Positions 38,391-64,000 of a stretch of DNA of 64,000 bases are shown piece by piece. How positions within the stretch are numbered: the stretch's first letter is position 1; each line of letters opens with the position of its first letter. A program made the translations under genes and the position numbers. The DNA lies in the NCBI GenBank assembly GCA_008632985.1, contig QPGO01000198.1, positions 62,001 through 126,000 of the forward strand. Reading direction: 5' to 3'. The notes beneath the pieces were generated by a model, which did no database searches, had not been told where the DNA came from, and worked only from the letters and a program-made list of their open reading frames with translations. This DNA comes from Psammoneis japonica. Its lineage: Eukaryota.

Positions 38391-38680
38391 GTACGCTCGC
38401 GACTCGCGAGAGAGACGCGCGTCTACCTTTCGATGCACGTACGTGGTGCTGATGTCGGCGGCAAATCTTGCAAATCTTGGATCTTCCCTACAAATCAACG
38501 TAGATTTCTACGTGAGGTTCTGAAAACATGAGAACACTCGTCAACACACTCAACTTCATTCAAACTCGCGATGCCAAAAGCCAGTTGAGGAGGTGTTGAA
38601 GCCAACAAGACGTTGCTTCGCGTTCTCATAGAGAGATACGACTCAACAAAAACGACAACAACAACAATAGATAAGACTCG

Positions 38681-38717
<37 letters not shown>

Positions 38718-38718
38718 C
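38681..38718 (+). repeat. (CAA)n microsatellite just upstream of the ACS start codon
   Basis: Uninterrupted ACA/CAA run. Confidence 0.95.
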
Positions 38719-38731
38719 GACAACAGTAAAT

Positions 38732-40859: not shown

Positions 40860-41494
40860 AAAGAAGGAGGGGTAGTAGCAGAGGACCAGCTCACGTACAA
40901 TGAAACAGAACAAGCGCAATATAGTAGGGTGGGTTTGTAAGGTCGAAGTAGTGCAATGATGTGATATGATTAACTAGTTTATCCCGATGAAGAACCAAGT
41001 ACTACTGGTACAGAGATTATGAGCTTCGCATGGACGATAGTGCTTCGATGACCCTCGCAGTCGGGGTCGCGTAGCTGAAATGCCCTCCCAGTCTGAAGTC
41101 GTGCTCCAGTCGTGAATCGTGAACTTTTGTGCGGGAAAGAGCCGCGACAACTCAACACGACGTACGGGTATTCACAACATTTTGACTATTGGGTGGCCGG
41201 TATTATATTGTGGATACTGGTGCACTACAGAGAACGCTCTCTAGCCAAACTATTACTGCACCGGTATGGAGATAGGAACATCACGTCGCGAGAAGGACCA
41301 GCTCTGAGCTCTGTCCAAATACCTAGTTTGCATCATTTCACATGCTTCTTGTGTTCGAAACATTTTGGCCATTATGTTGCTGCTGATGTGATTTCAACAT
41401 GGGTACATGTACGCCACCATGCCCACCAAAGATCCTGTTCCAAATCAATAATGCGCTTTTGTATTTTCTTATTTGATCCAATCCCAACAACAAC
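40837..41494 (+). repeat. ~650 bp direct repeat, copy 1 (ACS 3' end, intergenic DNA, degenerate DDI1 3' end)
   Basis: Colinear with 43367-44017. Confidence 0.9.
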
Positions 41495-41738
41495 TGTCAA
41501 AAGAAATGGTCCTTTGATCAATGTTGTGGTCCTTGCGTTTCCGTTGCGGCTTGCGTGCGCTTCCCGCGACCACGTCAGTCGAGACAAGACTGCAGACCTG
41601 CGACCGAGACCTACCTGCGACCACCATGCATCTCATTCAATCATGTTCGTCCCATCCCCAGCATCCAACATCATAAGAAACCACGCTATTTCATTACAAT
41701 CGCGAGACGTTGCTGATCTCTTCAACCATCCAACAAAC

Positions 41739-43027
41739 ATGGACCCACCGCGTGCCTTCTCCTCTGCTTCCAACTGGACTGACAACAAAGAGTCCGTTAG
41801 CATGGACCCACCGGATGCCTTCGCCTCTACCTACAACAACTCGCTATCTCCAATAGCCCGTCAACACATTCAGAATCTAATTTGCTGCTTGGACGACACT
41901 CAAGCTTATCCGAGATGTCCCTCGTGTTACTACGATCTCATGGATCGACACGATTTGATCACCGAGCCTGCATCCATTCGCTTTGACAGAATCGGAAAGA
42001 TCCATGTGGTCCGTTACGAGTCGATCTGTCTCCGCAAGAGCGACGAGAATGACAATGTCTGCACCGAAGACTTGTTACTAGTTGCGCTATTGAGTTGGAA
42101 ACGAAACCCTTGCGGCTCGGTCAATTTCCTTCCCAGGTCATTTGTTTGGGCGTTGCACACGATTTCCGGTAACGACGACGACGACGAGACTATGGACGAT
42201 GACGCCCTTCACAAAGCATTCCAAAACTCGCTGCCTACCAGTTATATTTGGAGCATTTTTGACAAACGCAAGGAGGCGGTCAAATTCGTCAATGAGGATA
42301 CATACTGCCTACCCCTTCACTATGCTTTCTCGAATTATTTATCGCAACATTACACGACGGCTGTCGCAAGAACAAAGTATTTCTCGGACTACTTATCGCG
42401 AGATTACACGCCGGCAACCGCAACCAAATCTTTCTTGGATTATTTATCGCAAGAGGATGGAGCAGCTCTTTATTCCGGCATTTCGGTCCGCCTTGTCAAG
42501 AGGGTCATTCACCGTTATCCTTCGGCCCTGCGACGACAGGACCGCAGGGGAAACAACCCCATGCACTACTTTTTTAAGAATGCGTCGGTGAAAATGATGG
42601 AGTGCTCGAGCTGGCCAATTGGATGGTCCAAAAGTCGTCGACAACCTTGAAATGCCTCAAGACAGCCTTGTTCCAAACCAATGTCGACGGCGACACTCCT
42701 CTTCAGTGTCTCATTTGGAGGCATGGCAACAATAAGGGGGTTTGGCCTCCTGAGATTTTGTCTGCCTTTCTAAATAATGTTGTGTTGCTGGACCACATCA
42801 GAGACAACGTGGACGATGATGGTTCAACCGCCATTCAGTACTCCCGAGACCTGTTGGCAACGGCGTTGTCGATTGGGAATTGCACGGCCATTCAGGCTCT
42901 CTTGGATTCTGCGAACTTGTGTCATAACACGGACCTACTGAACTGGATAGTTCTCGAACTCGTGTTGAAATCAATATGCAAGGGCGAAGAGATGCCATCA
43001 ACTAAAATTGTGTGCCGCAAGCAATGA
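41739..43027 (+). CDS. Hypothetical protein with degenerate ankyrin-like repeats (frameshift near 42590)
   Basis: Long ORF with LPLHYA, GNNPMHY and GDTPLQ motifs. Confidence 0.55.
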
Positions 43028-43366
43028 ACCGGATACGACTTAGAACACTTTGTGAGTGCCAATGCCTATGTTTTTCATTACTGGTAGGTAGCAAAGTGGT
43101 GTATCTTTTTTACACGGGATCCGCGAGCTCATTGTGCGATTGACGACTTTTTGGCGGACCGTATTTAGGGGAAATTGTGACAGGCAGGAGTCAAGTGCTT
43201 CATTGGGAACCTTTAGGGTCAATTGGACAAGCAAATTCTAACATTTGAAACAAGTTACTGTTTGGTCACTTTTGGGGGGGGGTCAATGGTGGCCTAGTTC
43301 GGCTGGATTTCCCTCCGTTCCCATTTACGTACAACGGGGCTAACCTGGGCACCTATTTTTTTGTGA

Positions 43367-44017
43367 CCAAACAGGCCGGGAAAAAGTAACAAGAAGGAGG
43401 GGTAGCAGCAAAGGACCAGCTCATGTACAATGAAAAAGAACAAGCACAATTTAGTGGAGTGGGCTTTCTTGTATAAGGTCAAAGTAGTGATATGATTAAC
43501 TAGTGTATCCCAATTAAGAATCAAGTACCAGTACAGGGATTGTTAGCTTCGAATGGACGATAGTGCTCCGATGACCAACGTGGTTTGGGTCGTGTGGCTG
43601 AAATCAAATCTCCTCTCGCAGTCGTGCTTTGGTCGTGAACTTTTGTGAGCGAAAGAGCCGCGACAACTCAACAAGACGTACGGGTACTATTCGTTATATT
43701 CACAGCATTTTGGCTTTTTGGGTTGGCTGGTGTTGTGGCTACTGGTGCGCTGCAGAAAACTCTCTAACCAAGCTACTCTACTACTGCACCGGTATGGAGG
43801 GAGGAGCATCACATCGCGAAAAGGACCAGCTCTGCCCAAACACCTAATTTACATGATTTCACATGCGTCTTGTGTTCGAAACATTGGCTGTTGTTGCTGC
43901 TGATGTGGTTTCAACATGGGTACCTGTACGCCACCATGCCCACCAAAGATCAGTACATCCTGTTCCAAATCAATAATGCATTTGTATTTTCTCATTTGAT
44001 CCAATCCCAACAACAAC
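43367..44017 (+). repeat. ~650 bp direct repeat, copy 2 (contains the intact DDI1-like 3' end)
   Basis: Colinear with 40837-41494. Confidence 0.9.
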
Positions 44018-44484
44018 AATTGTTGTTGCGGTACATCCAAGACGGAGTAATCCATACAAAACTCGACATGTCCCAATTCGACCGGAACTCCCGATATTTT
44101 TCCCAAAATCTTGGCTTGTCCCACCCCATTGGCGACACCACCGTGTCGGCGGTCGATGCGTGACTCCAAATTCAAGCGTTTGGCCAATTCATACGAAATG
44201 ACCGACGTGCATGCTCCCGAATCCACCATGAGTTCGACACAAATACCACTAATCACGCAGGGAACCGTGCACATGTAGGGTTGTTGTTGTCGAACGAGCG
44301 AAGAAAGCCATGGAGGTAACGAGACACTACTCGTTTGAGACGGTGATGGTTGTTGTTGTGGAGGACGACGTGCCGATGACGAGTCGTGCGCGACAACAGA
44401 AGAATTGTTTGCTGTTGCTTGTTGGTGTTCTTGCTCTGCGATTGCCAAGGCAATTGCAGCATCATTCGCTGTATCTGATTGCAT
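43849..44484 (-). CDS. DDI1-like retroviral-type aspartyl protease
   Basis: MVDSGACTSVIS, GVANGVG..KILG and LLLGLDQMRKYKCIIDL. Confidence 0.85.
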   Translation of the reverse strand: MQSDTANDAAIALAIAEQEHQQATANNSSVVAHDSSSARRPPQQQPSPSQTSSVSLPPWLSSLVRQQQPYMCTVPCVISGICVELMVDSGACTSVISYELAKRLNLESRIDRRHGGVANGVGQAKILGKISGVPVELGHVEFCMDYSVLDVPQQQLLLLGLDQMRKYKCIIDLEQDVLIFGGHGGVQVPMLKPHQQQQQPMFRTQDACEIM

Positions 44485-44940
44485 CGTTTCGTTGTTGTTG
44501 ATGGTTGTTGCTTTTGCAATGATTGTGGGGATTAAAAGCAACAGCAAGAAAAACACCACGCACGATTCGCATCATGTCGATTTTCTTCGTCGATCCACGA
44601 TGGAGGGAGAATCCACACAGTACAGTAAATACCAGGTATATGTAGTATAAGGAATTGTAGTACTATTCAGTTTATAATATATAAAGGATGAATATATAAT
44701 ATTCCACGGCTCGTCGAGTACAAATCTCACAGCGAGCCGTTTCATCGTCAGCTGTAAGCGAAAATCACGTTCTATTTTTGTCATAGTGATTTATTATACA
44801 ATAGTCCGTGCTGTAGATTAAAAATCATCACTGATGCGGAAAGTATCTTTCACCTTGCCATGATAAGCTTTCTCGTGACATCGTCATCACTATGTATCTC
44901 CCCTACAACACCGCTAACACCGCTATTGCAATCTTATTTG

Positions 44941-45779
44941 ATGGCCGCCATGATGGTACAGCTGAAGCCGTGTGTACTTGTCCTTGTTGCTCAGGCGATC
45001 GGATTTGGGGAGGTCTGCATTGCTTTTTCTCTAACTACTCAACAAACGGGCGCCGAATCGACAAAGACAGGAAGTACAGCAACAAGTCGTCGGTCGTTTC
45101 TTACTACAGCTAGCAGCCTCGCGACCTTGTTGACAATCCCATCGGTGGCAAATGCCGGGATCGACCCGTCGCTGCTGAAAAGTCTCCCCGTAGAGGGAGA
45201 TGAATCGGGGACGGCACAACGATTGCGTCAGATCGAAGCCATCCAAAAACCGGCAACAGACCTTGTCGATGTTCCGTTCACGGAGTTGCCGTCTGGCGTG
45301 TCGTATCGTGAATACCGCGAAGGAAAGGGAGAGGAGGGTACGTACCATTGGTGTTGAGCATTTTCAAACATGTAATGCTGTTCACGTACCTTATATAACA
45401 TAAGGCTTTATCCATCTTCACAGTCGTCCGTCAGGGATCCAAGGTGGCTGTCGAAATGACGATTCGATGCAAGTCCTTTGCGACACAGAACGAACCTGGA
45501 GGGATCAAGTTTTTTTCCACAAAGGAAGATACAGATTTTAATGAATTGGCATGGACAATTGGAAGTGGCGAACTATTGCCAGGTCTAGAAGAGGGCATGA
45601 TGGGGATGCATCGAAATGCTTTGCGACGGATCGAGGTTCCATCCACACAGGTTTATCCTGCCCGCAAAGCAAACCAACTTCCCCTACCTACTACAAAAGA
45701 CGGAAAGCGAAGGTTCGAAAACCTATTCAAGACAGACGCGACTCTGCTATTTGAGGTACTTGTTACAAGAATCAAATGA
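44941..45779 (+). CDS. FKBP-type peptidyl-prolyl isomerase, probably thylakoid lumen; intron 45338-45423
   Basis: Signal peptide + AF, twin-Arg SRRSFL...ANA, LPSGVSYREYREGKGE, IGSGELLPGLEEGMMGM and TLLFEV. Confidence 0.88.
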
Positions 45780-46174
45780 AGGCCGTGAAAGGGGCAAACT
45801 GTAACAGATGCATATCTTTTCAGGGTGGAAGCGGATGTAGTCATAACATCTAGCAAGAATACCTAGAATGATTCATCTAACGTAGACGCTTTTCTACCGT
45901 TTCATCAGTAATTGCAGAAGATAATGTTTTATCATCAAGTCTTAATATGGACAGATGGAAATCGCTTTCCTTACCCAGGAAAATTATTCTAGCAAGTCCC
46001 TTGCCCTTTGTGCTTTTATTCTGTCCACGACGATTCTACTGGAAGATGGATGGACCAGACGATTCCGTCACACAGTTTGTTGGATTGTCACTTTTCCGGC
46101 GCGCAACGGCTAGAGAGTCTTCGAAGAGTGGCACGAATTCCTGAGCACAAGTGGAAACAGCATCCATAAAACGC

Positions 46175-48995
46175 CATGGCCACCAAAACCAACAGCACCA
46201 AATGCAAAGGTGCACCGTCCTCCTGCAAGAAGATGGCCACACAAAGCGAGACGACTTCTCCAAAAAAAAATTCGAAGCAACAAGGCATCCAAAACAAGCT
46301 CTTTGACAACATGGGAAAAGATGCCAGCACCCGATGGATGGAAAGCACCACAGGAAACGTGGTGGTGGAGATGGAACACTGGACAACTCTGAGATGACTG
46401 AGAACACAGTCAAGGCTGGGAACCCAAAAGTCACTCAAGCCCCTTTTGAAGATTGGGGGTTGGCATTTCATTTGCCTTTTCTCCTCCGATGAAGCAGTGC
46501 CACAACAAAAGTTCTCAAGAGCGAACCAGACAAGGATGATGACACCTTTCTGATTGACAGTTTTGCATCAGCTGACAGAGAGCTCATCAATCATCACAGC
46601 CAGAAGAACAACAAGAAAGCCCTCATCAAGGTGGTTGACATGGCAAAAGCCAGCAATTGGAAAAAGCATGCTTTCCTTCTTTGGCCCACTTTCAGCCATC
46701 CTTCTGGTCCATTGGCCTTGTCCTTGGACTCCTCCATGCTTCAAGTGGCAAGCAAGCAGCAAGTCAGACAAAGCCAAAGAGGGCATGTTTGAGGAGGGTG
46801 GGATGCCAAAAAGAGGCCCCATCTGCTCTGTTTGAAGCAAAAATCTTGGATGCTGAAGCAGGCAAGAACAAAAAACTTTTGCAGCTGTGAACCCAGCCCG
46901 CAAGGCCAAGAAACCGGCATCAACAAAAAACAGCAATTTTTTAGAGAAACACAAAGTGTGTGTGCCACAATTTGTTCCTCACAGGGCCAGCAAAAACAAT
47001 GACTGGATTGCCAAGAACAAACTTGCAGGCACAAAAAGGGCAAACTCCATTAAGAAAAAATGCAGCTGCTTTGGCCCAAACAAAACATGAGCACAGAGGT
47101 CAATGTGGGTGGCTGGAGCTGCAGAGAGGCTGCCATGTGGGAAAAAATGATGACAAAGAAAAGCAAAAGCCAAAGTGCACAAAGACGTCAGCAAAAAAGA
47201 AACAAAGCCAAACAAACTGACCATCAGCAACAAAAAAAAGAGAAAGAGTTGAGGAAGGGGAAAATGGGTGGTGCACACATGAAGATTGCACCACCAGTTG
47301 CAGCACTGTCACAATGTGTCACTTGCATCTTTCCCTTCTCTAGTTGATGCAGGGCTTCTCCCATGTTTGAACAGCTGTGTTGGCTCAAGTTGGTGCAATG
47401 GACTTTTGCCTTGTCTCATGTTGGGTTCTCCTTTCTCAACTGGCTGTCCACAGCATGACAGCCAATGACTCCTGTTTGCTGGCAGAGGCTTTTTTGCTGA
47501 CAGCTTCTCACAAAACTTGCACTTTGTTTGGCAAAATGCAAGTGCACCTGCCATCAAACACAACACACATGTGAGGGCAAGGAGCAAGAAGTGGCAAGAG
47601 CTGCAACATGAGCCCAGCACACGTGTGCACTCTTGGCCACCACTCTTCTGCTGTCAACTCCCAGCATGACTCATCAAATCAGGCCACAGTTTGGGGGTTG
47701 CAAAGAGAGTTGTCTTCTTTTTCTGCACACAAAGCAGTGCGCCAGATTGTCCGGCCTTTTCTTTGGACAATTTGGGCTGCCACTTCCAGCACACAAGAAG
47801 AAAAAGTTGGGGTTTGGGACACATCCCATCCAAGAAAAAATTGTCACACTGTGTCAACAATCAACAACTCTGAGTTTCAAAATTGCCAGAGAGGATGGGT
47901 GGCTCACCAAACTTGGTGACATCAAATGATTTTGTGGGTCATGACACTTTGCCACAACTCAAAGCACCAATTGAAGACCTGTCGTTCCACACCACATCTC
48001 CCAGCAATGCCAAGCTCCTTTCTTGTTGGTGGCTTGTGCCTCTCCAGCTGCCAACCCCAGTTGCCGCCATCCTCCTCCCACAGAGATGAATTTGAAGGTT
48101 TGCACAATCACATTCTCTTGACATTTGAAACACAATTGAGGCAAACCCTTCTCCAGTTCTGGGCAGGGTTCAAGCCAGGGTTGCAAATGTGCAAAAGGCA
48201 CCCCATGCCCCAATTTTCTTTTAGACCAACTCATTGTTGCCAAGGAAATGGTGGCTTCAAGGAGAGGGAGAGGCATGTTTGAAAGAGCAAGCTGTGTTTG
48301 TTCCAATGTGCCCAGTCTGACAACTCTGTTTGCTGTTGCTGGCTGTCTCCTGCAGAGGATCCAAGTGACATTGCCTCATCCCGCCAGCATGCCCCAAGCT
48401 CTCAGCTGCAACTCAAACATGCTTTTCAGCGCTGCGCTGGGCACAACAAGAGCTGTGCCACATCTGTGGCTCTTTCACAGTTGCTTTGTGGGCACCATTT
48501 GTTTCTTTCTGCTCACTTGAAAGATTTAAGATGAAGATGTTGTCAGCAAAGTTGCTGCGCACACTGCACACCCAATGGGCGGGAAGGCTGAAATGCTGCC
48601 CTTGAGTGTTGCAATGCTGGCCTGGGTTAAAGCTGGCACCACTCTTTCTTCAATGGCCAGCCAGTGGAATGACCTTTCTCTTGACACCCTGAAAGAAAAG
48701 GAGGAACTGCTCCATGGGTGCATTTGAGGTGGACAGCACAGCTGGCCTTGTCCACAAAAGCTTCAGCTGGCATGGGTTCAAAGATCTGCTGCTTCTGTGA
48801 GACAAGTCTTTCTCTGCAGATGCCTCTCAGATTGCAGCATGGCACAATGGGCATTCTGATGCACAATTTGGCATTGAGGTTCTTGTTCATGCCTCATGGA
48901 GCTTTCGTTCGCAGTGTTGCCATTCTGTGAGGAGCACACCAGCACCGTCATGAAGCGAAATGGCAGGATCTTCGCCAATGTCTCGGTCATCTGAA
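46175..48995. other. TpA/CpG-depleted block; two convergent coding relics of unknown identity
   Basis: TA is nearly absent and the survivors are mostly TTAG, TTAA and CTAG. Normal composition on both sides. Confidence 0.9.
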
Positions 48996-49563
48996 TGCCA
49001 TGTATTGTAGTTTTGTCGACTAATGACTCTCTACTCTAGCTAGAATAGAGTTGAACTTGTATGTCGGAGGAACAACTGGAACACTCATTGCACATTATTA
49101 TCTTCCCTGCAACTCTACCGTACACATTATTCAGGAAGCCCATGCTACTCTACTTAAAAAACAAAAAGGAGATACCAAAGCAGCAACACGCAATAAACCC
49201 TAAAGACGAATTGTGTCGTACGAATGAACGACATGCAGCCGCATGTCCAACACGTATGATTGGAGTAAGATGTCGACCCATCTCCTTGCTTTATTGCGCC
49301 ACACGAGAAGAGAGCGAGTCTTGCTCTTTAGCAGTCGAAGAGAAGCTGGAAGTTGTCTATGGGTTGTGGTTCTCCTACATAATTTAAAGTTTTCCTATTC
49401 TAACCTAGTCGTAGCATCCATCTTGCATGTAATATCCTGACCAAGGGCTACTACGTACCCGTGTTACAATGCTAAACGATGCAATCACCACAAGAGATTA
49501 CAAAAACAAGTCTTTCTTTGAATTGTTTGATACATTCAGTAAGCAAAGCTTGAATAGCACCTG

Positions 49564-50748
49564 TTAGTTCGGCGTGACGACTTCTTTGAAATTATGTGCA
49601 CCGTACACATCGGATTTCCCGTCATCAATGTTGATTTTCACGGAGTCGCTCATGTAGTGCCAGAGGTAGTCGGCAAAGTTACTGGTAGAGTGAATGAGTG
49701 TATCACATTGCTGAACCAGACGAAAAATGGACAACATGATGATCACTTCCTGTTTCGGGTCGTTGGATGGGGTCTGACTTTCCCACCCGCCTTCAGCCCC
49801 ACGATGGCGTGGCCTATCTAGAAACACCCAGTTGCAGTCAGGAAACTGGGATGATGCTTCTTCAATTGCATTTTGATCATCTGTCAGCAAAAAAATGCTT
49901 CGTTCATTTTTGTGTAGAGAACGATTTCGTTCCGTTGCTGCGTCGATGTACTCGTGAATCTCGTGGTACTTTCGTGACCAATTGCCATGCAGTACAACAT
50001 CACCTCTACGGACGTGCATGGCCGCACACGGCGTAGATAGATTAGCCGATTTGGTTGAGTACTCATACACGGCACGCCTCAGCCAGCTTTGTGGGCGGGT
50101 CGCGTATTCGTATGCCCAGCTCGACATGAGTTCATGAATATGGAGAGAATATTTCGTTGCAAGAAGAGCATTGACCACTTTCTCTCTGGGAAGGTCATCC
50201 GGTACCTCACAAGATGACATATTCAGAAAGAAGCAAGACAGATCCTTTTTCGGGCACGCAGCATGACTCCCATTCTCCTTGTTGGCCGCGTAGTGCCAAT
50301 GGCTATGTGTGTGCATTTGCACCGGTTGTTTCGCATCGAGGGCGTGAATGAGACCATCATTAATGTTAAGAAAGTCAGCTCCCCAACCTGATGACCAAAG
50401 CTCCTTAACTACCATATTTGAGCAGTCTCCGTGATGTTGAATGTCGTGTAGTCTCCGGAAGAACTTAGCTTTGGCTTTGTCTTCCATCGGCGAAAAGCAG
50501 TAGTGCGTGTCATTCTCAGATGAGAGACTCCAATCGGGATGGCTTGTCCACCAGTCATCCATGTTCTTGTCCCAAGATGCGCATAAGGAATGCTCCTCTT
50601 GCAAGTTAGGCAAGTCGGTAACGGGTTTATCAGGATCCGTTACGAACATTTCTTCCGACTTCTCATGAATCGGATGAAGCCACATCAATCTCAACAACGG
50701 GATGAAATTTAACATCATCAGTGCTGTGTAGCGAAACGGGGATTTCAT
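49564..50748 (-). CDS. GT23 / alpha-1,6-fucosyltransferase-like glycosyltransferase
   Basis: SGWGAD, AMHVRRGD, IFLLTDD and CDTLIHSTSNF, with an N-terminal anchor. Confidence 0.8.
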   Translation of the reverse strand: MKSPFRYTALMMLNFIPLLRLMWLHPIHEKSEEMFVTDPDKPVTDLPNLQEEHSLCASWDKNMDDWWTSHPDWSLSSENDTHYCFSPMEDKAKAKFFRRLHDIQHHGDCSNMVVKELWSSGWGADFLNINDGLIHALDAKQPVQMHTHSHWHYAANKENGSHAACPKKDLSCFFLNMSSCEVPDDLPREKVVNALLATKYSLHIHELMSSWAYEYATRPQSWLRRAVYEYSTKSANLSTPCAAMHVRRGDVVLHGNWSRKYHEIHEYIDAATERNRSLHKNERSIFLLTDDQNAIEEASSQFPDCNWVFLDRPRHRGAEGGWESQTPSNDPKQEVIIMLSIFRLVQQCDTLIHSTSNFADYLWHYMSDSVKINIDDGKSDVYGAHNFKEVVTPN

Positions 50749-50981
50749 GTTGATGAGTTTCTGGACAATCACTTTTAGTAGATCGATCAATCATGCCAGT
50801 TAGTTCTCTACACTAAGAGGGGAGAGGGTGAATTTGCAGCTTTCGGCTTTCGTTTGCAGAGATGCGATTTTGTGAGAGTCTTGCAGAGTCAGGGCGCATG
50901 CTAAGTAAAAGTTAACGGTCATGACTGAGAGTTCCAGTCTTGGCTTTCGCGACTGAAAGGAGCAACAGCTCAAATTTGCGT

Positions 50982-51741
50982 CCCCATTTGCTCAAACTTG
51001 GCAAGTTTGAGCAAAATGCTCAAACTTCCGAGATTGCTCAAACTTGCGCAAGATTGAGCAATTGGTCAAAAACATGTGCCAGCTTGGTGCAACAGAGCCC
51101 TGTGTGAAAAAAATCCACCATGTTGGCACACGGCCGAGGACGTTGCATCATTGCGCTCTGATGACATGAAGACAGTGTCGGCACACTGACAATCCATTTG
51201 CCACATGTTTTTGACTTGGAACAACAAACCTCAATGTTGTGGCACATGTCAATTCCTCAGCACACTTTGAAAAATGTTTTCGATCGAAACAAGAGGCAAA
51301 AATGTTGTGCAACACTTTCTCTTCTTCTTGTTGCACCCCACCCCCCATCAAGCCTGTTCTGCCAGAACTTTCAACATTTTCATGCACAAGTTTGTGCCAC
51401 ATGTTTTTCATTGGATTGCTGGGTTTCTTGAAGGTGTTGTCACAGAGAAACTGCGCTCTTTGTTGGCCGCCAATGGCTGCAAACACCACTTTGTTTCTGA
51501 TGCTTTTGTTTTTTGCACTGACACCCCTGCATGCACCAGTTGACAAAAGCAGCAATTGCAGTGTGCACTGCAAGCACTGTGCAGTGGGGGCCAGCTCTGT
51601 GCAGCTGTTTTGTGCAGGCAGCCTCCACTTTGCACTTGCAGCACATGTTTGAGCAACAATTGCTCAACAAATTTGAGCAGTTGTCCAAACACATTCAGCC
51701 CATTTCTTGCTCAAACACATCATGTGTTTGAGCAAACGGTG
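50982..51741. mobile_element. Putative non-autonomous DNA transposon with TGCTCAAA/TTTGAGCA subterminal repeats, within a TpA-depleted block (about 50940-52300)
   Basis: CcCCaTTTGCTCAAAC on the left and GTTTGAGCAAAcGGtG on the right. Motif clusters at 50987-51062 and 51646-51736. No clear TSD. Confidence 0.6.
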
Positions 51742-52470
51742 CTGGACAAAACATGACTCAAGCGGTGCACCGCAGTGGCTGTGATGGCGGCACATGCTTT
51801 TTCAAATTGTTGTCACACAAAGTCATGCACTTTGAGCAAAATGCCTGCACAGTGCTGCTCTGAGCCACAACTGTGTGCAATGAGATTTTGCAGCTTTGCA
51901 GAAGTTTCTGTGACATCGGATTTGCACCCACTGCCTGAGCTGAATTTCTGTGACACACACCAACTTAGATCAACTGCAAAAATCACAGAGCTCTTTCCAG
52001 CTGCTGCCTGGGACAAGCTCAGTCACATGCCTGGGTGCCCTTTCAATCCACAACCATGGATGGGGCCAAAGTTCCTCACCTGTTCACAAAACAGGGGCGC
52101 ACCTCAACATGGTGGTTGAAGTTGTGGTGGGTGGTGGATGACGCTGCGCTGCTGAAGTTCTTGTCCTCAACCAGCTCCAGCGAAAGTGGGTGTTTGTTTT
52201 GCCACCCGCCCGGCCACTTTAAGCTGGTGAAATTTGACATCAGCATCATTTGTCTGTGCCGACTCCCCGCCGCTGGCCAAGTGATTGAGCCATCGCACAA
52301 AAGATGAGTCGTCGTCGGTCGTCGCTTTTTTTTGTCAACCTCGTGCGCACGCACGCACGCACGAGTTTTGCGTGACTGGTCTGTCCTCCCGCCCTCGTGA
52401 CTCACACAACATCATCCTCGCGTCACAACATCATCATCATCATCGCAATCATCGCATCGACAGCTCATTC

Positions 52471-52687
52471 TGGGGGAAGGTCTCCCAGCCAGCTGCTGGC
52501 TGAAGAATTTTGTGTAGAAATTGAACTGAAAGAGTCTGTCAATCTGTGCGTTAGGGGGTTTTGGTGAACGCTGGACAGACTCGTCTTCTTTTGCGTACGT
52601 AAAAATTGTACTTGCAACTTGCAAAACCCCCAAACGCACTGACGATCAGACTTTTTTCAGCCAGCAGCTGGCTGGAGTCTTCCCCCA
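52471..52687. mobile_element. MITE with ~30 bp TIRs and 4-bp TSD
   Basis: TGGGGGAAG..TCC(C)AGCCAGCTGCTGGCTGAA ... TTCAGCCAGCAGCTGGCTGGAGTCTTCCCCCA, with ATTC on both flanks (52467-52470, 52688-52691). Confidence 0.88.
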
Positions 52688-52799: not shown

Positions 52800-54471
52800 A
52801 TGTATAGACTTGCGAGAAAAAGCAATTTTCTTTTGAAACAACATGTGAAAAGCCGATTTTTTCAGCCATCATGCTGTTGGTTTGCTACCAAACGCCAATT
52901 GCGCGAATCCAAAAAGAGGAAAAAGCAACAACAAGAAGCATCTCTGATCAAAACAGACCTTGTCGATTATAAAGCTAATCAAATTGAAGGCATTGCCACA
53001 CTACCACAAGAAAAAGTAGAAACCTTTGAAAAGGGCATTGTCAAACCCGACGTGACGCCGGCCTTGATTGATTTGACAGATATTTACGATGAACGTTTGC
53101 ATTATGCACCCAAATTTGATTCTCAAAACATTTGAGTCATCGACTCCTCTTTCACAAGAATTGATTCAAGTATTGGCCGTAACGAATCGTCCCATGACGG
53201 TAGCCGAGTACATGAGACAAGCATTGACGCATCCCGTGCATGGTTATTATACCAATCCAACTTCAAATCTAGACAAAAACGAGCAAGATGATGATGATTG
53301 GGATAATGACGACTGGGATACGGAGAATGGATCCGCTCATGACGTGATCGGTAAACGTGGTGATTTTGTCACGGCACCGGAAATCTCTCAAGTCTTTGGA
53401 GAATGCTTGGCTCTGTGGTTTGTGCACTATCTAGAGACAATGCCTGCAAATACCAAAAACAACAACAACAAGATTCGATTGGTGGAAATTGGACCCGGCA
53501 AGGGAACTCTCATGGCCGACGTGGTACGGACCCTTCAATCGAGTTTTTCACAATATGACATTGAGGAAATTCATCTAATCGAACAGAGTCCAGCCATGCG
53601 CAAGGAACAAAAAGAGGCACTGAGTGGCAAAATCGATTCCGAATCCATCATTTATTGGCACGATTCCTTTTTGGATCTCGTGGCAAACAATCAAAAGAAA
53701 AATTCCAAACAAATACCAACCTTTATCATTTGTCAAGAATTCATGGATGCCTTGCCGATTCACGTGTTTGAACACACGCAAGAGGGATGGAGAGAACGCT
53801 TGGTAGATATTGCCGACACAAAATCTACTGAAAACGAGAAAGCAAACGACGAAACGAAAAAGACACGGTTACGATTTGTGACATCACCCGACACGACACC
53901 GGCACTGCGTACGTTATTAAACGTGGATCAATTGGATGGAATGGTACAAGATAATCAAGTCGTGGAGGTTTGTCCTGAAGGAATCTTGTTGGTCCAAGAC
54001 ATTGCAGCCTATTTGGAACGACAGTGCGGCGGTGTTGGCGCCTGTTTGGTGGTGGATTATGGACAAGAGGGATCGAGTGATTCCTTGCGGGGCTTTTCGC
54101 AACACAAGCAGGTTCACGTGCTGAGTCGTCCCGGTCAAGTGGATGTCACGGCCGATGTCGATTTTGCTGCACTCAAGCATGCTGTGAATCATAACGACAA
54201 GAAGAAGCAATCTACCACCGCAACCGCCAGAGCCTTTGGTCCCTTGACACAGGGACAATTTCTAGCATCCATGGGTATTGTGGAACGGGTTAGTCAATTG
54301 ATTGATTTGGAAGAAACGACCGATCAGCAAGCACACGATTTGTACACGGCGTTGGAACGATTAGTGCTGCCCGAGCAAATGGGGGAACGATACAAGGTCC
54401 TATCGATTGTTTGTGGCGGCAAAGATGAATCATCACTGACGGTTCCTGCTGGATTTGAACATGCTCAATGA
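52800..54471 (+). CDS. NDUFAF7: Mitochondrial protein arginine methyltransferase NDUFAF7/MidA (frameshift near 53130)
   Basis: YMRQALTHP..GYY, GDFVTAPEISQVFGE, VEIGPGKGTLM, EFMDALP, DYG, PGQVDVTADVDF and MGERYKV. Confidence 0.93.
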
Positions 54472-54533
54472 GAATATATTTTGTTTAGCTTGTCTAATAA
54501 TGCAATCGTTTTCCCTTTGCTCTATCCATGTTT

Positions 54534-55204
<671 letters not shown>

Positions 55205-55663
55205 CTATGTTGACACTTGTTTTGTTGTTGTCGTTGATGTCTTTTTTTGTGAGAAAGGAGTTCGGGTCGAACATCTGCGACTTGTGAGTCGTGACGGCGG
55301 AATTTTGAGTCGTGACTCGAGGGACGCACGCCGCGCGCGAAACCGAGCGAACGCGATTCAAATTTCTAATCTGGAATCAAATCGTTCGTTTGCGCCGATA
55401 TAGCGGAAACAAAAGGCACGTGTAACTCTTTGAAAGTGGCCTTGTGAAATATTTCTCTTCCTTACTATCCTTAAATTGATTTACTGGAATGGTGACGAGC
55501 TCACAAAGAGTCAATCGCAACATTTCCAAGACAATCACCGCGAAAGCATCCAGTCCGCCGAATCGCAAAAGCAACAATCATACTTCAATTGAAAAATCGC
55601 GTTCCAGTGCCGACAGTGAGAGACCCCAGTAGTGACACACATTATAAAATTCCGCGCTTCCTA

Positions 55664-57606
55664 TTATACAACTTCAATCATGACATTATCATGCACCCCC
55701 TTCAACAAGAGCTGCCCATCATACTTGATGAGTCCCTTTTTCTTTGCACTTCTCAAGGTCCCCACTAGCGCTTCGTAGGTATTTTGAACCACCTCATCGG
55801 TAAACAATACACCAAATGGGACACATGCTGGCCCTTTTTCATCTGCAGTCGACAAGCGAGCAATATCTTTGAGCAATTGCTGCACTTCCTCGTCGACACG
55901 AACAAACGAGTTTTTGTTGGAGTGAAAGAGAGCCTTGTCCGACTTTGTCCTCGAAAGAGGCGCATCAGACGAATCCAGTTTCCCAACTCGACCTTCCATC
56001 ATGGACGCTCGAAATTTCGGTTTGGGGCGTGGTTTCGGTGCCACTGCTTGGTCCGTTCGCCCCCCGCCTTGCTCCTTTGAATGTGATTCTGTCTCGCGTC
56101 TGTAACTTTTTTGGGAGGGAGTTGATTTAATAGTCATTGACACATCCGGCTGTGATTGAACAGGTGCAGTAGCCGCTTTGCTCTTTCCACCAGGTGAGCT
56201 ATCAATGTTAATTCGGATGGCCTCTTTTTTTGCTTTGCGCGCATTACCGTTTTGTGCAGCGGGCGATAATACTCGGCTCTTGTCTCTTGATTTGCGAGGC
56301 GATGATGAGCCGCTCTTTGTCTTCTTTTCACACGATCCACTACTACTACTCTGTTTCCTTAATCTCCTAGTAGGCTTTTCCATTATTTCCTTCTTGTTCT
56401 TTCTTGTTGGAGAATGTTCTTGAAAGAGTTTGGTCCATCGCTCCGAGACATTGCTCTTGATTCTTCGGTGTTCCGACGTGGCCTTCACCAAAGAGGAATT
56501 ATTGTTTTCTTCTTCTTGACGCTGTTTGCGCGTCACCACCATTTCGGAATCACTCCAAGCGCCACAGGGATAAAGCCTCCCTGCACGTCGGCGGGGACTT
56601 GCCGCAGAATTGCATTCTCCATCCGAGTCATCACTGGACAAAAAGGCAGTCGGTATTTTCAAACGTCCCGGGGAGCCTTCTACAGATGAGTTTGGTGACT
56701 GAGCCTTTGGAATGACACTACTTGTGCTTGGCGGACGGGGCGGAGTTTTGAAGCCCAACGACGATACGGACGTTCTTGTAGGAGGCCGAGGCGGGGTTTG
56801 ATGATGAGCGACTGGCAATTGAGCGGTACGTAGAGGCTTTCGTGGTGGCGTTCCAAGAGGAGGTTTCTTCTCTGTACCGAGAGGAGGTGGTGGTGTCGAG
56901 GCTCTCTGTGTCGTCACGACGGGCGGCGATGGTATTGGGGATGATTCTGGTGTAGACGTCGTAGACTGAATCGGCTTTGTTGGTGTGGTCCTTTTCGTCC
57001 ATCGTGGGGGAGTCCGTTTGCTAACCTTGAGTGAAGCTCCCTGCTTCTGTTGCGCTTGTTGTTCTAACGACGGTAGCGCAGGTGGCAGAGCCGCATTCAC
57101 ATCCTCCATATTGTAGGAAGATGGCACAGGGGTAGTATCATTCTCATCCGAGCTCAAATCCTTTTTCATATGCCGTGGAGGTGGAGGAGTAGGTTTCGGA
57201 GACGGAACAACAGGAGGAGGCACCGGTAATTCTGACTCGGAGGATAGCGACTGTGACTGTGTCAGTGACGGAACTTGTTGCTGTTCCTGTACTAGAGATA
57301 TCCTTACGTCGTCGTGCATGCCCTTGAGGAGCATTTGACCCTTGAAATTGATCAGCTTTCGTTTCTTGGCACTTTTCAACGTCCCCACGAGTGCTTCATA
57401 ATATTGTTGCGCTTCTTCGTCTTCAAACAACTCTCCAAAGAGACAGTACGGCTCCTGAGGGTCACCAATACGAACAATATCCAACTGCAACTGCTTCAGT
57501 TCTTGCTCGAGTCGATGCTATAATGGGCAATAATCGAGAGCTTATACGTGAGAGACATGTCGAATTCAATTGTTCCAAACATGCTTTTCGACAAAACATA
57601 CCTCAT
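55664..57606 (-). CDS. Protein with N- and C-terminal Costars (ABRA C-terminal-like) domains and a long Pro/Ser-rich linker; 5' micro-exon inferred
   Basis: FGELF.DE....YEALVGTLKSAKKR..I.F.GQMLLKG.HD occurs twice. ATGAG|GTATG at 57606 is the probable first exon. Confidence 0.88.
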
Positions 57607-58366
57607 GGTCCTTCACGTGATCCTGCGAAGGTGACGGAGTCCAAGAATTTTGTAACGGTGGACTTGATAACTTGCTAGCCATATTGTCACTGTATACTGT
57701 ATCTATTGCAATCTAATATCCCAAACGTCCTTTCAAAACTTTAGAAAACAGTACCAGGTCCATCAACAACAACAGCCAACAACCAACATAACAGGCAGAG
57801 CATGAAATGCGGTGTCCGTCCTCGCAGAGTCCGTTGGCACAATGTCCCACGTTCGTATCTATATTCGATTTCGGAGAAATTAGTTTGATGTCAAATTTTT
57901 TTTAAATAAGAAAGATTTAGAGAAACATACGTACTTGAATACGGGAATGAATTTTTGATACGAGTGAACCTCGTGCCAGACACACAACGTACAGTGTACA
58001 GTATGCCATTTTGGATTCAGCGGGGTGTGGGGGGCACCTCCCTACAATTTTTCTAAGTACATTCTAATGACGCATTCAACACTTGACTGTTCTTTGGGGG
58101 AGCGTTCCTTCGTCAAACATTCCCCCGCTCATCAATTGGTGAACAACGTGCCAACGCGATCTTGCTTCAACACAGCTTGAAACTTCAACACAAGATCGAT
58201 CGCTAACTAACAAGAAGATCTGGATCGCAGATCGAAGCGAACACATTCTGCCTCTCATAAACCCATCATCACAATAAGCAGCATCTGGCAGCTTATTGTT
58301 TTGTCGTCTCTTTGTTGAAAACATCTTTTCCAGCCCAAATTCGTCTAGCTGGCGAATTCCACAAAG

Positions 58367-59952
58367 ATGAAACTTCTTTTGTTGTGTTCCTTCCTCGGCA
58401 TTGGCATTGCATTCTCATCGCAGTTTTCCGAGCTCGAACATCGATACCCTCCTCACCAGAAACCTCGCAGTCTTACGGACACGATTATTCCGGTGGAACA
58501 CAGTGGCGATTTGTACAGTGAAGGTGTCGACATGCTGATCCTTTCGCAATACATTTACGAGTTGGCGGCTCTGCGAAAGCATGCAAAGAAAAAGAAAGAA
58601 ACAGACTTGTTGAAGAGCCTCGACGTTAGTAAAGAACATCCCAAGTGTCTTGCCGAGCTCAATCAGGTGCTCAAGGCGAATCTTCATCACATGTAAGGGT
58701 CTACGAGTGCGGTTGTCTATAGCAAGTCTTGTGTTTCGAGTCTCACATTACTCTTTCTCGAATGATGTTGCGTATATAGTGGCGGCAAGGGCGGGGAACA
58801 AGAGGCCATTGATGCTGTTGCTGCCTTTTTGAGTAGTGAAGATAAGCACGACCAAGAGCTTGTACATGGAACCAAGCACAATCATGATTTGCACGTGTTT
58901 GCCGACAAAAAGGACGATGCCAAGGCATCTCGTGTTCACGGCATTGCCGTGAATAAGAACAGGAAGCGAGTCGAGATTGTGTTTCGCGGAACGGCCAATG
59001 TATCACTCAAGAATGCCTGGTGGGATTGGTCCACCAACTTGAAAGCGGTATGGAGGGTAAGTAGGAATAGTCTCCAAAGCAGGAAGATGTCATCTGGTCG
59101 ATATAATAATCTTACAGAGTCCAATTTCTTCTTGTTGTGACAAAAGAGAAAGGAATCTAATCCTGATACTGATGCAGAAAAGGATGACGTCGTCAACAGT
59201 ATCTTGGTACACCGGGGCTTTTCCAAAGTCCTTCTTGGCTCCCGAAAGAGCAAGATGAGGCCCATTGACAAGATTCTACAGGAAGACATCAAGCCGCTTA
59301 TGCAACCGGGTTACCGGTAAGTAATACAGCGTTGAGAAAAGAAGAAGAAGAAGAAGTCGTTGTCTGTTTCTAACCATGGTTGCAGATTGTACGTGTCTGG
59401 TCATTCGTTGGGAGGTGCGATTGCGACACTTTTTGGTTTCTACGCGGCCGCGGATCCGGACCTTACCCAAGACGGGCCCGTCACGATTTACACATATGCA
59501 GCGCCTCGCGTCGGTGATGCTACCTTTCGAGAAGCCTGTGGTCATCTCGAGAGACAAGGGAAACTTCGTCATGCTCGTTTCCACAACCAACTGGATAAAG
59601 GTGCGTTTTTTTTATACTGGATCAGGCTTTGGAGCGTTTTCATGTAGGACAATCTCATGTCTCATTCTTAATTTTCTTATTTGTAGTCCCTCAACTACCC
59701 TGGTTGGCTGGGCTTTACAAACATGTTGGTATGGAGGTACGACTTCGAAAGGATGAGCCTCCCATTGTGGATTATCCTGTCAAACGCTCATGGCAGCAAT
59801 CTGGTCAAGGGGTCGTGAAAAGCGTTAAAGCGTTACCACAAGCCTTGAAGAATCATTCCCCCGAAGAAATGATGAAACGATTCAAAAAGGCCAAGGACGC
59901 TTTTCTCAAATCGACGCTGGAGCACGAATACCGTGCCATGTGGGGAATTTGA
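58367..59952 (+). CDS. Secreted class 3 lipase (multi-exon)
   Basis: Signal peptide, IVFRGT, DWSTNL, VHRGF, VSGHSLGGAIA, YAAPRVGD, YKHVG and a C-terminal His. Confidence 0.9.
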
Positions 59953-60274
59953 GCAAAGATGGATCCAAAATAAAGTACAGTGGGCGCTGCATTTGTGAAT
60001 GCTGGTGTGTCAAGGATAGTGCTCGCAAAAACACGTCGGGACTAAGTACTTCCCATGGATTCGTGCAGCTCTCGTGCCAGGCCAAATCAAATCACCTTTA
60101 AAAAGAAAATTAGGGGGTTTGTACCTGTCCTTTTAGTAATTTACGACTAACTTAGCTAAATATTTTTTCCGGAGCACGCTGTCCTCTCTTCTTTGTACTT
60201 CAATCGCTTTGCTTCTGAGTTCCCGTGGTAAGGAAGGTGAAAAACTTAATGTATCAACTCTATTTCTTTCTCTT

Positions 60275-62722
60275 TCATAGTTGAACCACTTCGGCACTCT
60301 TGTCACCGAAGAGCTCCCCGGCCTTCTTGTCATCGACAACAACAAGCCAGTCGCGCTTTTTTCTTTTGCTGCCTGACGTGGACTTGTTGCGTCCGCGGCG
60401 ACCATTCCTGAGGTCGCAGAGGCAGCAGAATCCGCGGGCATCTGAACAAGTAGTCGCAGACAAGGTCGATAATCGGAAACGAGTGTGTCCTGTAGTGTCT
60501 TCCATTCGGTGTGAAGTTCTTCCGACAGCTTCTGAGATACTTTTTCCTTCTTTGGCTTTCCCCGGCTCTCATGATAAAGTTTCGATGGAACAAGGGTTCG
60601 AAGCGCATCTTGTTGATTACTCACGGCAGAAACGTACTTGGACTGCACTATACAGGTGCGAAAGTCGCCATAGTCTAGGCGGTTTCGCAACAAGAAGATC
60701 AAATCGGGGCCAATGTTATCATCTGGATAGCAGAAAGGAGCAACTTGACCCTCGAACTTGGAACTGACTGACTTTGCAACCCAATCGATCGTTTTTCTAA
60801 TACTCTCACTGGTGTCAACACAGAGCACGCCATACGCCGACCTCCTTGAAATGTCGTAGGCCTCCAAAGCCGAACCGCCTTCCTCCAAATGTGAATTCAG
60901 GAAATTGTGCAGTCTGTCCTTCTCCATCAACAGACCAGGCAACAGCAACCTCTCAAACCCTTCGCCGAGGCCACCTTCTTCCTGTTTCTTCAAATTTTCT
61001 CGGAGGTGGTGGTCGAGGTCGAAAAAATTGATCCCAGCTTGAACGACGACAGGTTCGTCGAGATGCCCTTTTATGCTGGTCCCTTGTCGATCAGTTTCGC
61101 AAACTGCAGCCACGCCATTTTCGATCAGCGCTTTTGCAGAAGCATCAGCAAACGGATGCGGTTTCTGGCCAACGGCAAAACGGCACACCGCATGCTCTAG
61201 GTCGTCCACTACCCGCCTAAGCAACTGGTTCATGCTCGATTCAGTGCCGGAACATTTGCGATCCACCCTTGCAAAGCAAGCATGCGCCGAAGTTTCGCCG
61301 GCAGTCCATGACTCTCGTCGGTTGTTTTCTTGATCTGCACGCGTCATGACGTTCAAATGTCGATCCAAGGCTTCAATCAGTTTGGCACCCATGTCCTCGA
61401 AACTACCTTGAGTTCTCCACACTTGATTCGAGTGACTTTTGTTCTCCCGTCGACTGGAGTGTGCTTCCAAAAAGCCAGCAGCCCATCTTGGTCGTCCACG
61501 AAGCCAGTTGGCGATGTGCGTCATGACATCATCGCGCACGCCAGATGGATCAAGCATTTGTTTGGCGCAGGCATTCTTTGACCTCTTCTACACTGAGCAA
61601 CCTGAAACCCACGAAGAAGAGGCTTGCACTGTCACCGAGCGATTTTCCCACAATGGACAGCGTCTGTTCGGAAAGTTGGTCCAATGCGAGACCTGTGCCC
61701 GAGAACACTGGAAAGTGCAAATCCTTTCGCATCTTGGACAAACAACCAAATCCCCCCACAATGGCAGAGAAAGCTGACCTGGCCTGCATGCCATTTCTGC
61801 TCAGAAATTTCATCTTGTTGAGCTCCAAGAGTGCTTGTGCTTCGTCAACAAAGATGGACCAAACTTTCTTTGTGGAGGCACAATGATCGAAGCGAACAGC
61901 TCCATTGACGCGGTCTTCATCACACTTCTCCATGGCATCGTAAAATGTGTCCCCGCCAAGCAGTCTTTCTGGAAATGTTTGATGCAGCAACCACTCGCGC
62001 GGAGTCATGTCCCTCTTCAAAATTTTGTTCAGTTCCTCATGGACAACATGCCGGACAAAAAGGAGCACCGACAGTCGCTCTTGAATTGTGGTGCGATTCT
62101 TGTCGTTCGTGCTTCGTGCGGGTGTCATTCGCCTCTGGCAAATCGCAGTCCAAAACATGCAGGAGATCCCGTGAACCTGGGTTTCTGCAAAAGTCGTCCA
62201 CCAAAAAGTAGAACCCCTTCTCACGGCTCAGACATTCAAAGATGGTGCGGGTCTTTCCAGCACCGGATGTGCCACAGAGAAATGTCGGTCCTTCTTCTTG
62301 CGCTCTGCAAATGTGTTGGTGGCCCTCGGGTTGAGAATGGTGCACTGTGTTGTGTCCACTGTTGTCTGCCAGACCCTGCAGAAGAGAAGGCATGGACGCG
62401 ACGTTGACATGAAGCCTTCCTGCTGTCCAAGGGAGTGCCGCAATGGAACATTCTCGCGCTGGGGCTTCCACAGTGACGCCAACAAGGCGTCTCGTTGGGG
62501 CTCAAAAAATTCCAGCTGTGGTCCATTGACACTGATGCTTTCTTCATGCTCCTGGAGGCAGGCTGCCACGAAGACCTTCACCGTGTCCGCAACCTCTTTC
62601 TTCTCCACACCCATCTTAAGATCCTCGTTTGAGCGGTTGGGTGCTGTTGGTTCAGCAGAAGAAAGTGGGTTGCTGTTGCGTTGGAGCAAGTGGCGTTGCT
62701 TTGTCAACGTTCACTGGGTCAT
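60275..62722 (-). pseudogene. Crinkler-like P-loop NTPase + PD-(D/E)xK nuclease gene, disrupted and partly TpA-converted
   Basis: GTSGAGKTRTIFE.L, IFVDEAQ, VFSGTGL, LRGRPRW, LDEPVV, GEGFE and PDDNIGPDLIF...VQSK. Frameshifts and an early TGA. Confidence 0.75.
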
Positions 62723-62949
62723 TCTGTTGTTCTTTCTTGTTTCTTGCTTTCCCCAGGTTTTCCCACTTCTCCAAAATCGAGCAATGCAACATTCAAGCAC
62801 AGACATGTGTCAAAATCGAATCAGCAATCAACTGTGGGCATCCGTTCATCGCGTTTGTGATCGCAATCCCGCCCGAGGGAACCATCGCACGGTCGTTTGT
62901 GCACCACAGTCAAGTGGTGAACGCCACTTTTCAGTGTGATGGGAGGGGT

Positions 62950-64000
62950 GATTTTGCAAAGCATTCGTGATTGCTTCACTGTGGAATTCAGAAGTTTTTT
63001 CAGCATGTTTGCGACTCAGAAGAGACGCAGAATCCCACCGGAGTGGAGGTGATTGAGCACCTTGATCCGGTGGAACAGAATCTGCGGCACCCAACGCTGG
63101 ATGTCATTGGGGACGGGTGCAATCCGGCAGATTTTCTGAGTGAGAACAAGCTTTCAATGTTGGTCAACAACATGGACCACTCATGTGAGGATGCTGAAGT
63201 GCATCTCACGGCGGAGCTAGAACAGAATCAGGAGCTGTTCGATGCCGAGGTGCACCTGGAGCAGCGCTGTTTTGGCAGGTGCTGTCTCTAGAGAGTTGAC
63301 AGCATGCGGTGCTGTGGTGTCTGTGTCATCCCACTGGTGCATCAAATTGGCATTTCATGCCACAGTCGGGCCAAAAGAAGCGATTCAACAGCTCAGTCTA
63401 GAAAGTTTTAGCGGTGGCGCGCGAACAAAAAATGCGTGGAAGCAGTGCCACAATGTGCGGCCCAAAAAGAATGACACGGCATTCCGTTGTGGACAATTGT
63501 TGGTTGCCGGAGGAAGCACAACAGACAGGGGAAACAAGCATGGTGAAGAGACGACGCAAGCAAAGAGACCGACACTGATGCAAGTGCCGGAGAGAGATGC
63601 AAGGACAGCAATCCAACGACATTGCAAGGGCGCAAAAGAGAGAACAGATCCATTTGAGTTAGTGCCATGTCTTCAACAAAAAAAGAACAATGCAAGACAA
63701 CATTGGCATGCACAAAAACTCACACAGAGAAGCACCACACCAGCGCCAGAAAAATGACCACATCTGCGGTGAGATGCAACAGCACAAGGAGGTGAGAACA
63801 CACTTTTCTACCAGCGCAATGCAACAACGAGCAAATGGGCAATGGAAACTCACCAGTGGGAGCAAAACTTGGGCTGTCTGGATTGCCAATGGCGGGCAGG
63901 GAGGAAAGAAGTCTGCTGGTTCCACGGAGCATGATGACAAAAGCACGCAGCAGATTGGCATGAGCTTTGGCAGAAAGTGGGTGCTTGGGCTTGAGTGACT
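62950..64000. other. TpA-depleted block continuing off the right edge; unidentified coding relic on the + strand
   Basis: The few TAs seen are CTAG or TTAG (63217, 63287, 63398, 63408, 63659) plus CTAC near 63808. CpG is partly retained. Confidence 0.8.

Follow-up and report, generated by a model that had tools for sequence, protein, structure and literature searches.

The gene at the edge of a TA-erased block

The window, i.e., the whole stretch of 64,000 nucleotides analyzed here (C195:62001-126000 of a 91-Mb assembly), consists of normal DNA interleaved with almost TA-free blocks. In four sampled stretches that total 638 kb, such TA-erased blocks take up 39-47% of the sequence. One of them extends from 60857 to ~73.6 kb (12.8 kb in all), and its left edge falls inside a broken minus-strand gene (Table 1). 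The stop codon of this gene (TGA) occupies 60275-60277. The ATG at 62614 is more likely to be its start than 62722, because the frame from 62722 hits TGA at codon 4 and the alignments of homologues begin near 62600. With the closest full-length relative of the gene as the query, 53 homologues were retrieved at E<=1e-40; the nearest is 61% identical to the gene over the 3′ part, and the named relatives belong to Nitzschia and Attheya.

Pfam assigned no family at cut-off to the pieces of the gene or to six homologues. The Walker A and Walker B (DEAQ) motifs are nearly invariant among the 53 homologues, and the predicted structure of an intact homologue (P0001; pLDDT 87, with the first 42 residues at low confidence) best matched archaeal AAA+/STAND-like ATPases (Z 9.8, rmsd 4.4, 299 aligned). 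The C-terminal domain was modeled at pLDDT 91. Its best fold match, PaqCI, is weak (Z 3.8, rmsd 3.6, 102 aligned) and no match reaches Z 5; restriction-type nucleases fill many top rows of the comparison, and the domain has a conserved P-D...Q-x-K. We label it a probable restriction-endonuclease fold. In its mode of action, the product would resemble the Crinkler-related (CR) proteins that combine an NTPase with an REase (review PMC5289972). It shares the P-loop NTPase domain with them, and we treat it as a candidate member, given the weak nuclease match and no Pfam family at cut-off. CR proteins also carry an N-terminal header domain (Ubl or helical), and none was recognized in this family. 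Of the frameshifts that break the gene, two are common to both haplotypes, one is confined to the haplotype of the window, and one (60379..60380) is probably an assembly error. The family includes many dead copies, and we regard this member of it as dispensable.

A cluster of multi-copy repeats starts at 62829, ~215 bp upstream of the start codon. Sequence depth is single-copy over the gene and rises to repeat level from 62.73 kb, and the converted zone passes the repeat cluster by ~1.9 kb, into DNA of single-copy depth. The repeats are unclassified, and Pfam gave no family for 11 frames tried in the block to the right. The neighbors on either side, a convergent class 3 lipase gene on the left and a sulfatase gene to the right of the block, lie in TA-normal DNA. 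A contig of run X2 at 58795-60106 skips three GT-AG introns of the lipase gene, so this run, provisionally listed as DNA, behaves like RNA; a low-depth contig of the same run lies at 60435-60787, and the lack of X2 cover over the converted part carries no evidential weight. Ordinary genes are also found at 53077-57517 (a SAM-dependent methyltransferase [PF02636], an Arf GTPase, and a protein with two Costars domains).

Table 1. Features of the locus (window numbering, except for the last row)
Feature	Position	Strand or orientation	Evidence or remark
Class 3 lipase gene, convergent neighbor	58349..59952	plus	Unconverted DNA; three introns spliced (run X2)
Broken P-loop NTPase (AAA+/STAND-like) gene with C-terminal probable restriction-endonuclease fold	60275..62614	minus	53 homologues, Walker motifs, folds
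Unconverted 3′ part of the gene	60278..60860		18 TA in 582 bp; conserved Tyr all kept; RTAY share normal
Apparent 1-bp frameshift	60379..60380		Other haplotype and full-depth short-read contig disagree with window
Best-fit edge (step) of TA-erased domain	60850..60870		Model fits
Possible shoulder	60860..61281		4 TA in 421 bp; haplotypes near-identical except Tyr/His site 61194
Young 390-bp TA-rich inverted-repeat element	61281..61289		Insertion in C143 haplotype only
Converted tract with deep haplotype divergence	61290..61820		7 TG-versus-CA double differences
4-bp frameshift, window's haplotype only	61557..61564		Heterozygous in short-read contigs
Converted 5′ part of the gene	61820..62614		Conversions common to both haplotypes
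Frameshifts present in either haplotype alike	near 62380-62340 and near 62112		Inside converted 5′ part
Gene's 5′ 200 bp, duplicated 3.4 kb to the right	62422..62615	same orientation	86% identity
Start of multi-copy repeat cluster	62829..64000		Block continues to ~73.6 kb
Tandem 1.2-kb duplicate at a paralogous locus	L026:5958-8440 (contig C249)		Paralogue 5′ end, promoter, and start of a glycosyltransferase family 8 gene

Tyrosine loss and the shape of the TA border

Fourteen alignment columns contain at least 60% Tyr among the 53 homologues: nine in the 5′ part of the gene, four in the 3′ part, and one that is Met in the window, as in the three closest homologues. In the window, the residues of the nine 5′ columns are H C C Y R C H H H. 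Hence, 8/9 Tyr columns 5′ of 61.2 kb have changed to His, Cys, or Arg, versus 0/4 in the 3′ part (Y Y Y Y; one-sided Fisher 9/1287, ~0.007, by hand). From Tyr codons, His and Cys are what TA>CA and TA>TG produce. None of the 52 control columns (W, F, D, G, P, E) has changed, which indicates that the gene was functional until recently.

An earlier note, made from the letters alone, had described Tyr-bearing motifs in the 3′ part of the gene and His/Cys-rich words farther 5′, and all of the motifs it quoted are present in the translation. The retained 3′ residues at 60858, 60834, 60729, 60672, 60636, and 60576 are Tyr here and in most close homologues. LDRHLN (61359), SAHACF (61284), and TFLCGTSG (62276) replace residues that are Tyr in 91%, 64%, and 96% of homologues, respectively. 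In LEHAVCRF, the other haplotype and the two closest homologues have Tyr at 61194, and the closest homologue has Tyr at 61185 as well. Homologues thus carry Tyr where the 5′ part has His or Cys, so the first of the note's own grounds for refutation, identical residues throughout the paralogues, does not apply; the second, a chimeric misassembly, is dealt with below. The retention of most CpG is likewise borne out (observed/expected 0.70-1.10 across the gene). The proposed progressive thinning of TA up to ~62.2 kb is not: ~90% of TA is already lost from 61.28 kb (4 in 1333 bp).

TA counts place the change within the gene. The segment at 60278-60860 has 18 TA in 582 bp, versus 8 in 1754 bp at 60860-62614 (Fisher p=2e-6), and TA in the RTAY context are absent from the window's copy of the gene 5′ of 60860. 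In two unconverted paralogues, every quarter of the full length retains 15-24 TA, so the TA-poor 5′ part is not inherent to the protein. Divided by zone, the density is 3.1% (18/582 bp), 0.95% (4/421 bp), and 0.3% (4/1333 bp); the middle zone, a possible shoulder, is distinguishable from the 3′ zone (p=0.027), and its difference from the core is not significant (p=0.10). A single step at ~60860 describes the data (lnL -137.2) better than a log-linear slope (-140.0) or a uniform density (-148.5), and the best width of a logistic fit was the narrowest tried; a smooth logistic or log-linear gradient over the gene was rejected on this basis.

Other borders have a similar form. Among 60 sampled edges with at least 2 kb on either side, which were called on TA itself and are therefore biased towards steps, a step fitted best at 49 and a ramp at 11 (5 by >=2 lnL); summed over the 60, a 200-bp ramp fell 69 lnL below the step. 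From one bin to the next, 7.4-9.4 TA per 200 bp give way to 0.5-1.0. In simulations, ramps of at least 400 bp pulled down the outer bins, an effect not seen in the real data. Genuine conversion slopes do occur in some young inserts (L021:2907-3982 and C195:7675-8934), the former with 8/8 TA converted at one end and ~3/10 at the other. The border of TA conversion is a fairly sharp step, not a smooth slope, and the conversion itself is real.

The earlier note favored a gradient that spreads in cis from the block, like heterochromatin or RIP leakage, and inactivates adjacent genes. Read as a smooth decay with distance, the probability of mutation would fall off from the repeat block while a front creeps outward and kills neighboring genes. 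Such graded leakage could explain the three TA zones, the Tyr still polymorphic within the shoulder (61194), the mixed zone at the 5′ end of the paralogue at L026, the slopes in young inserts, and the slope in CpG described below. Nonetheless, TA falls in a step here and at most edges, the step is the better fit both at this locus and over the 60 edges, the shoulder is not separable from the core at p=0.10, surviving TA sit in slow contexts, and the flanking lipase and sulfatase genes are unconverted. We consider this reading unlikely.

Nor can the death of the gene be firmly ascribed to the mutator, as had been suggested for adjacent genes, because TA conversion cannot make indels and the gene also has these. 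Its two neighbors are TA-normal, and few edges cut recognizable genes: long frames cross 11 of 80 edges, this gene included, and the 10 others scanned gave one Pfam match (NUMOD endonuclease-type), in a count that overlooks genes whose introns or short exons fall on an edge. That frame (L031:7641-8765) is partly converted, chiefly in its middle; it has NUMOD1 and I-HmuI-like endonuclease domains and a duplicate at C195:19648-20903. The mutator stripped the gene of its tyrosines, and silencing or indels may have come first. A converted copy of the NTPase is unlikely to work, since most tyrosines are gone, including one before Walker A. Either the borders halt at active genes or selection removes the cases in which they do not.

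Paralogues and haplotypes

The 10 paralogous loci examined (two of them fragments) comprise six wholly converted, three unconverted, and one, L026, affected only at its 5′ end. Two copies ~47 kb apart on contig C2 (L022:2417-5437 and L023:2791-6132) are 91% identical; in their longest aligned block, 61/67 TA are converted in L023, with no instance of the reverse. At L026, the left copy of a 1.2-kb tandem duplicate is TA-erased and the right copy largely spared, including its glycosyltransferase part: 38 TA of the right copy are TG or CA in the left, two are kept, and three show the reverse. The 5′ end of this paralogue includes a mixed zone of a few hundred bases. Place, not similarity, decides conversion, as the 91%-identical siblings with only one converted copy attest. 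The claim that a TA>TG/CA mutator acts in cis is thereby upheld, with 1.9 kb of single-copy-depth DNA converted beyond the repeats and near-identical copies elsewhere spared.

The paralogues also bear on the possibility that the trigger lay with the gene itself, as a locally duplicated sequence or a selfish NTPase-nuclease element, rather than with the transposon block. In the duplication variant, a tandem copy of the 5′ end would nucleate a silent patch, perhaps via convergent or antisense RNA. In both partly converted paralogues, the 5′ end does recur upstream in direct orientation (200 bp at 86% identity for this gene, the 1.2-kb unit for L026), six of the 10 paralogous loci are fully converted, and the L026 patch has no other repeat that we found. 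A search for high-copy repeats in that patch was negative, but it was a weak one, as the DNA search skips very common words; no further copy of the 1.2-kb unit was found in the genome. Against this, L022 is untouched and the right-hand glycosyltransferase copy of L026 is spared, so similarity alone is insufficient, and the duplicate in the window is short and old. A trigger of this kind is unlikely, though still a live candidate.

The second haplotype, represented by contig C143 (96-98% identical), has its edge at the same place, and a short-read contig of 2080 bp (59246-61323) runs over the edge; a misassembly or chimera is excluded by these two contigs spanning the junction. Run X1 may come from the window's own source sample, so that it provides an independent assembly but not an independent organism. 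One X1 contig joins 60957 to 61464 (the shorter side has 46 bases, and the intervening letters are not known).

Divergence between the haplotypes varies along the gene. They are nearly homozygous at 59.0-61.28 kb, in agreement with short-read depth, and differ at ~3 sites per kb right of 61.82 kb, where conversions are held in common. Between these, at 61290-61820, seven sites read TG in one haplotype and CA in the other, beside 15 other differences per kb (ordinary DNA has 12.5 per kb). Judged by the homologues, three of the seven are firmly independent conversions of one TA (61434 Tyr to His/Cys, 61464 Val to Ala/Val, 61548 Leu to Pro/Leu) and two are probably so (61524 and 61813); the remaining two derive from CpG (ancestral CG at 61515-61518 and 61687). 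Farther 3′, 61194 is His in the window's haplotype and Tyr in the other. Since the same TA sites were converted differently (His versus Cys), conversion was recent and independent in the two haplotypes; the middle of the gene underwent conversion on two occasions, neither of them older than the standing variation. At the 3′ density, ~16 TA would be expected in this tract, and by our estimate ~five discordant sites fit independent near-complete conversion after the haplotype split. At 61.29-61.82 kb, neutral divergence is greater, too (15 versus ~3 per kb), so we do not take the excess of independent conversions in that tract to prove that a front has moved.

The 390-bp element inserted in the C143 haplotype belongs to a family of at least 40 copies with 97-100% identity. 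Its target duplication contains an already converted His codon; therefore, conversion preceded the insertion, and the insert, which keeps its TA, has so far escaped. The family is represented at L018:6285-6676 and at window 2369-2760; in the window copy, 13/28 TA are converted and CpG is intact.

A recombination or gene-conversion breakpoint, with the unconverted 3′ part of another haplotype pasted onto a converted gene, might also leave a step. The near-identity of the haplotypes over 59.0-61.28 kb between flanks with 12-15 differences per kb does indicate recent homogenization, but the homogenized tract ends at ~61.28 kb, the step at 60.86 kb lies inside it, and steps are the rule at other edges. 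This origin of the step is very improbable. The C195 and C143 haplotypes are a mosaic of recent homogenization; near-homozygous tracts at 35900-52675 and 59000-61281 lie beside tracts with 12-15 differences per kb.

Mutation chemistry and a proposed silent domain

In 17 repeat-copy pairs, A>G changes affected 493/794 TA, 57/2347 AA, 61/2031 CA, and 40/1857 GA; because the pairs were selected for a difference in TA content, the figure for TA is inflated. TAC and TAT (0.69 and 0.76) were converted more than TAA and TAG (0.46 and 0.44), the reverse change TG>TA occurred at 18/2002 sites versus 493/794 for TA>TG, and CG>CA at 240/1604. The mutation is A>G/T>C strictly in the TpA context, on both strands (TA>TG/TA>CA). 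The motif of polymerase eta is WA, and its action would raise A>G at AA besides TA. AA>AG (2.4%) is no higher than GA>GG (2.2%), and these context counts rule out both the WA and the wider YA motif. Error-prone patch repair of this type around deaminated 5mC would suit the greater reach of TA loss relative to CpG loss, but with these counts, and with the edge spanned by the 2080-bp contig and a second assembly contig, neither this nor an assembly chimera is at all credible.

It is CpG, not TA, that is graded. Going inwards at the edges, CpG falls from 7.6 to 5.4, 4.6, 4.0, 3.8, and 3.4 per 200 bp, a slope of ~0.8 kb at a typical edge; at this locus, it is 1.1 at 61 kb and has fallen to 0.25 by 65 kb. 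CpG is kept 2.8 kb inwards at this edge, versus a median of 50 bp among the 55/60 edges that reached the threshold. Between the haplotypes, 22-34% of CpG sites differ inside (from 61.29 kb) versus 0-6% outside. TA loss extends further outwards than CpG loss, and CpG loss trails TA loss. DNMT5-dependent CG methylation of transposons, reported for Phaeodactylum in a preprint (bioRxiv 10.1101/2021.06.11.447926), would be a known source for CpG>TpG/CpA decay in the blocks and would explain the CpG loss only.

The process matches the TpA hypermutation of Bigelowiella natans, in which, according to a 2026 preprint by Mettrop et al. (bioRxiv 10.64898/2026.01.13.699255), TpA changes to TpG or CpA on both strands in regional clusters that are TpA-poor and rich in CpA and TpG. 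The de novo rate there is raised ~1000-fold and is active in only some lines; an ADAT2-like deaminase is proposed but unproven, and RNA guides or epigenetic marks are suggested for targeting without a test. Here, too, A>G/T>C is restricted to TpA, affects both strands, and forms regional clusters. Whereas the targets observed in that rhizarian are silent integrated viral DNA, those in the present organism, probably a diatom, include multi-copy repeats, a gene of single-copy depth, and the glycosyltransferase copy of L026. Further differences are the large converted share of the sampled stretches, the additional decay of CpG, and an edge that cuts a single-copy host-family gene. The main text of the preprint does not contain 'diatom', 'spread', 'boundar', 'gradient', or 'flank'. 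Our searches, with most subscription literature outside their reach, brought up no relevant work on TpA loss in diatoms or other algae, and one found only this preprint.

RIP targets duplicated DNA and mutates both copies. In contrast, conversion spares one member of each pair here, at 91% identity (L022/L023) or 85% (L026), and RIP changes C to T and creates TpA, which is erased in our case. The likeness lies in a repeat-associated mutator that overruns adjacent single-copy DNA: RIP leaks into single-copy genes of Leptosphaeria maculans, with transition borders that average 859 +/- 385 bp (PMC3105345).

Taken together, we assign a probability of roughly 65% to the reading that the gene straddles the border of a silent domain, inside which both strands are exposed to an A-to-G mutator specific for TpA. 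Patterns in the sequence lead us to favor a domain defined by silence or chromatin rather than by sequence matching. The domain would nucleate on the repeat cluster upstream of the start codon, silence the promoter of the gene, and then engulf the gene body up to the active chromatin of the convergent lipase. Within the border, TA conversion would quickly become near-complete and look like a step, while slower deamination of 5mC would leave a slope in CpG from which the duration of silence could be read for each part. The agent would most likely be an ADAT/TadA-type deaminase recruited by chromatin to act on DNA, in line with the proposal for Bigelowiella. The assembly has nine matches to PF00383 (cytidine/adenosine deaminase domain; L091-L099), and the seven profiled lie in TA-normal DNA. 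Some observations weigh against a silent domain: six of the 10 paralogous loci are wholly converted, so the family itself may be a target; the L026 patch, where the weak search found no high-copy repeat, suggests that repeats are not needed to start one; and slopes exist in young inserts, with 11/60 edges better fitted by a ramp.

A further possibility, which we hold tentatively, is that a position-defined editing domain moves forward in jumps, with an action in cis on any DNA that recombination brings next to it. Under such jumps, a young, repeat-laden right arm (~3 differences per kb), converted before the haplotypes split, would have joined two long-diverged, unconverted gene middles (15 per kb), each of which was then converted independently.

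The process itself is already known; what this locus adds is a well-polarized border in a host-family gene, together with a haplotype record of independent recent conversion. The border is resolved at base level, and 53 homologues reveal the original residues of the gene that it cuts; the independently converted haplotypes and spared siblings would favor a chromatin-defined domain acting in cis over sequence matching. The step at 60.86 kb and both ends of the L026 patch are precise places at which to profile methylation, histone marks, and transcription. For annotators, His/Cys-rich, Tyr-free frames in such genomes are mutated pseudogenes. The mutator hits DNA by location and can overrun single-copy genes. 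If the domain does advance in jumps, TpA editing would locate its present edge to a few hundred bases, and the slope in CpG would date the capture of each stretch, i.e., a ratchet that swallows dispensable host genes and carries a readable clock.
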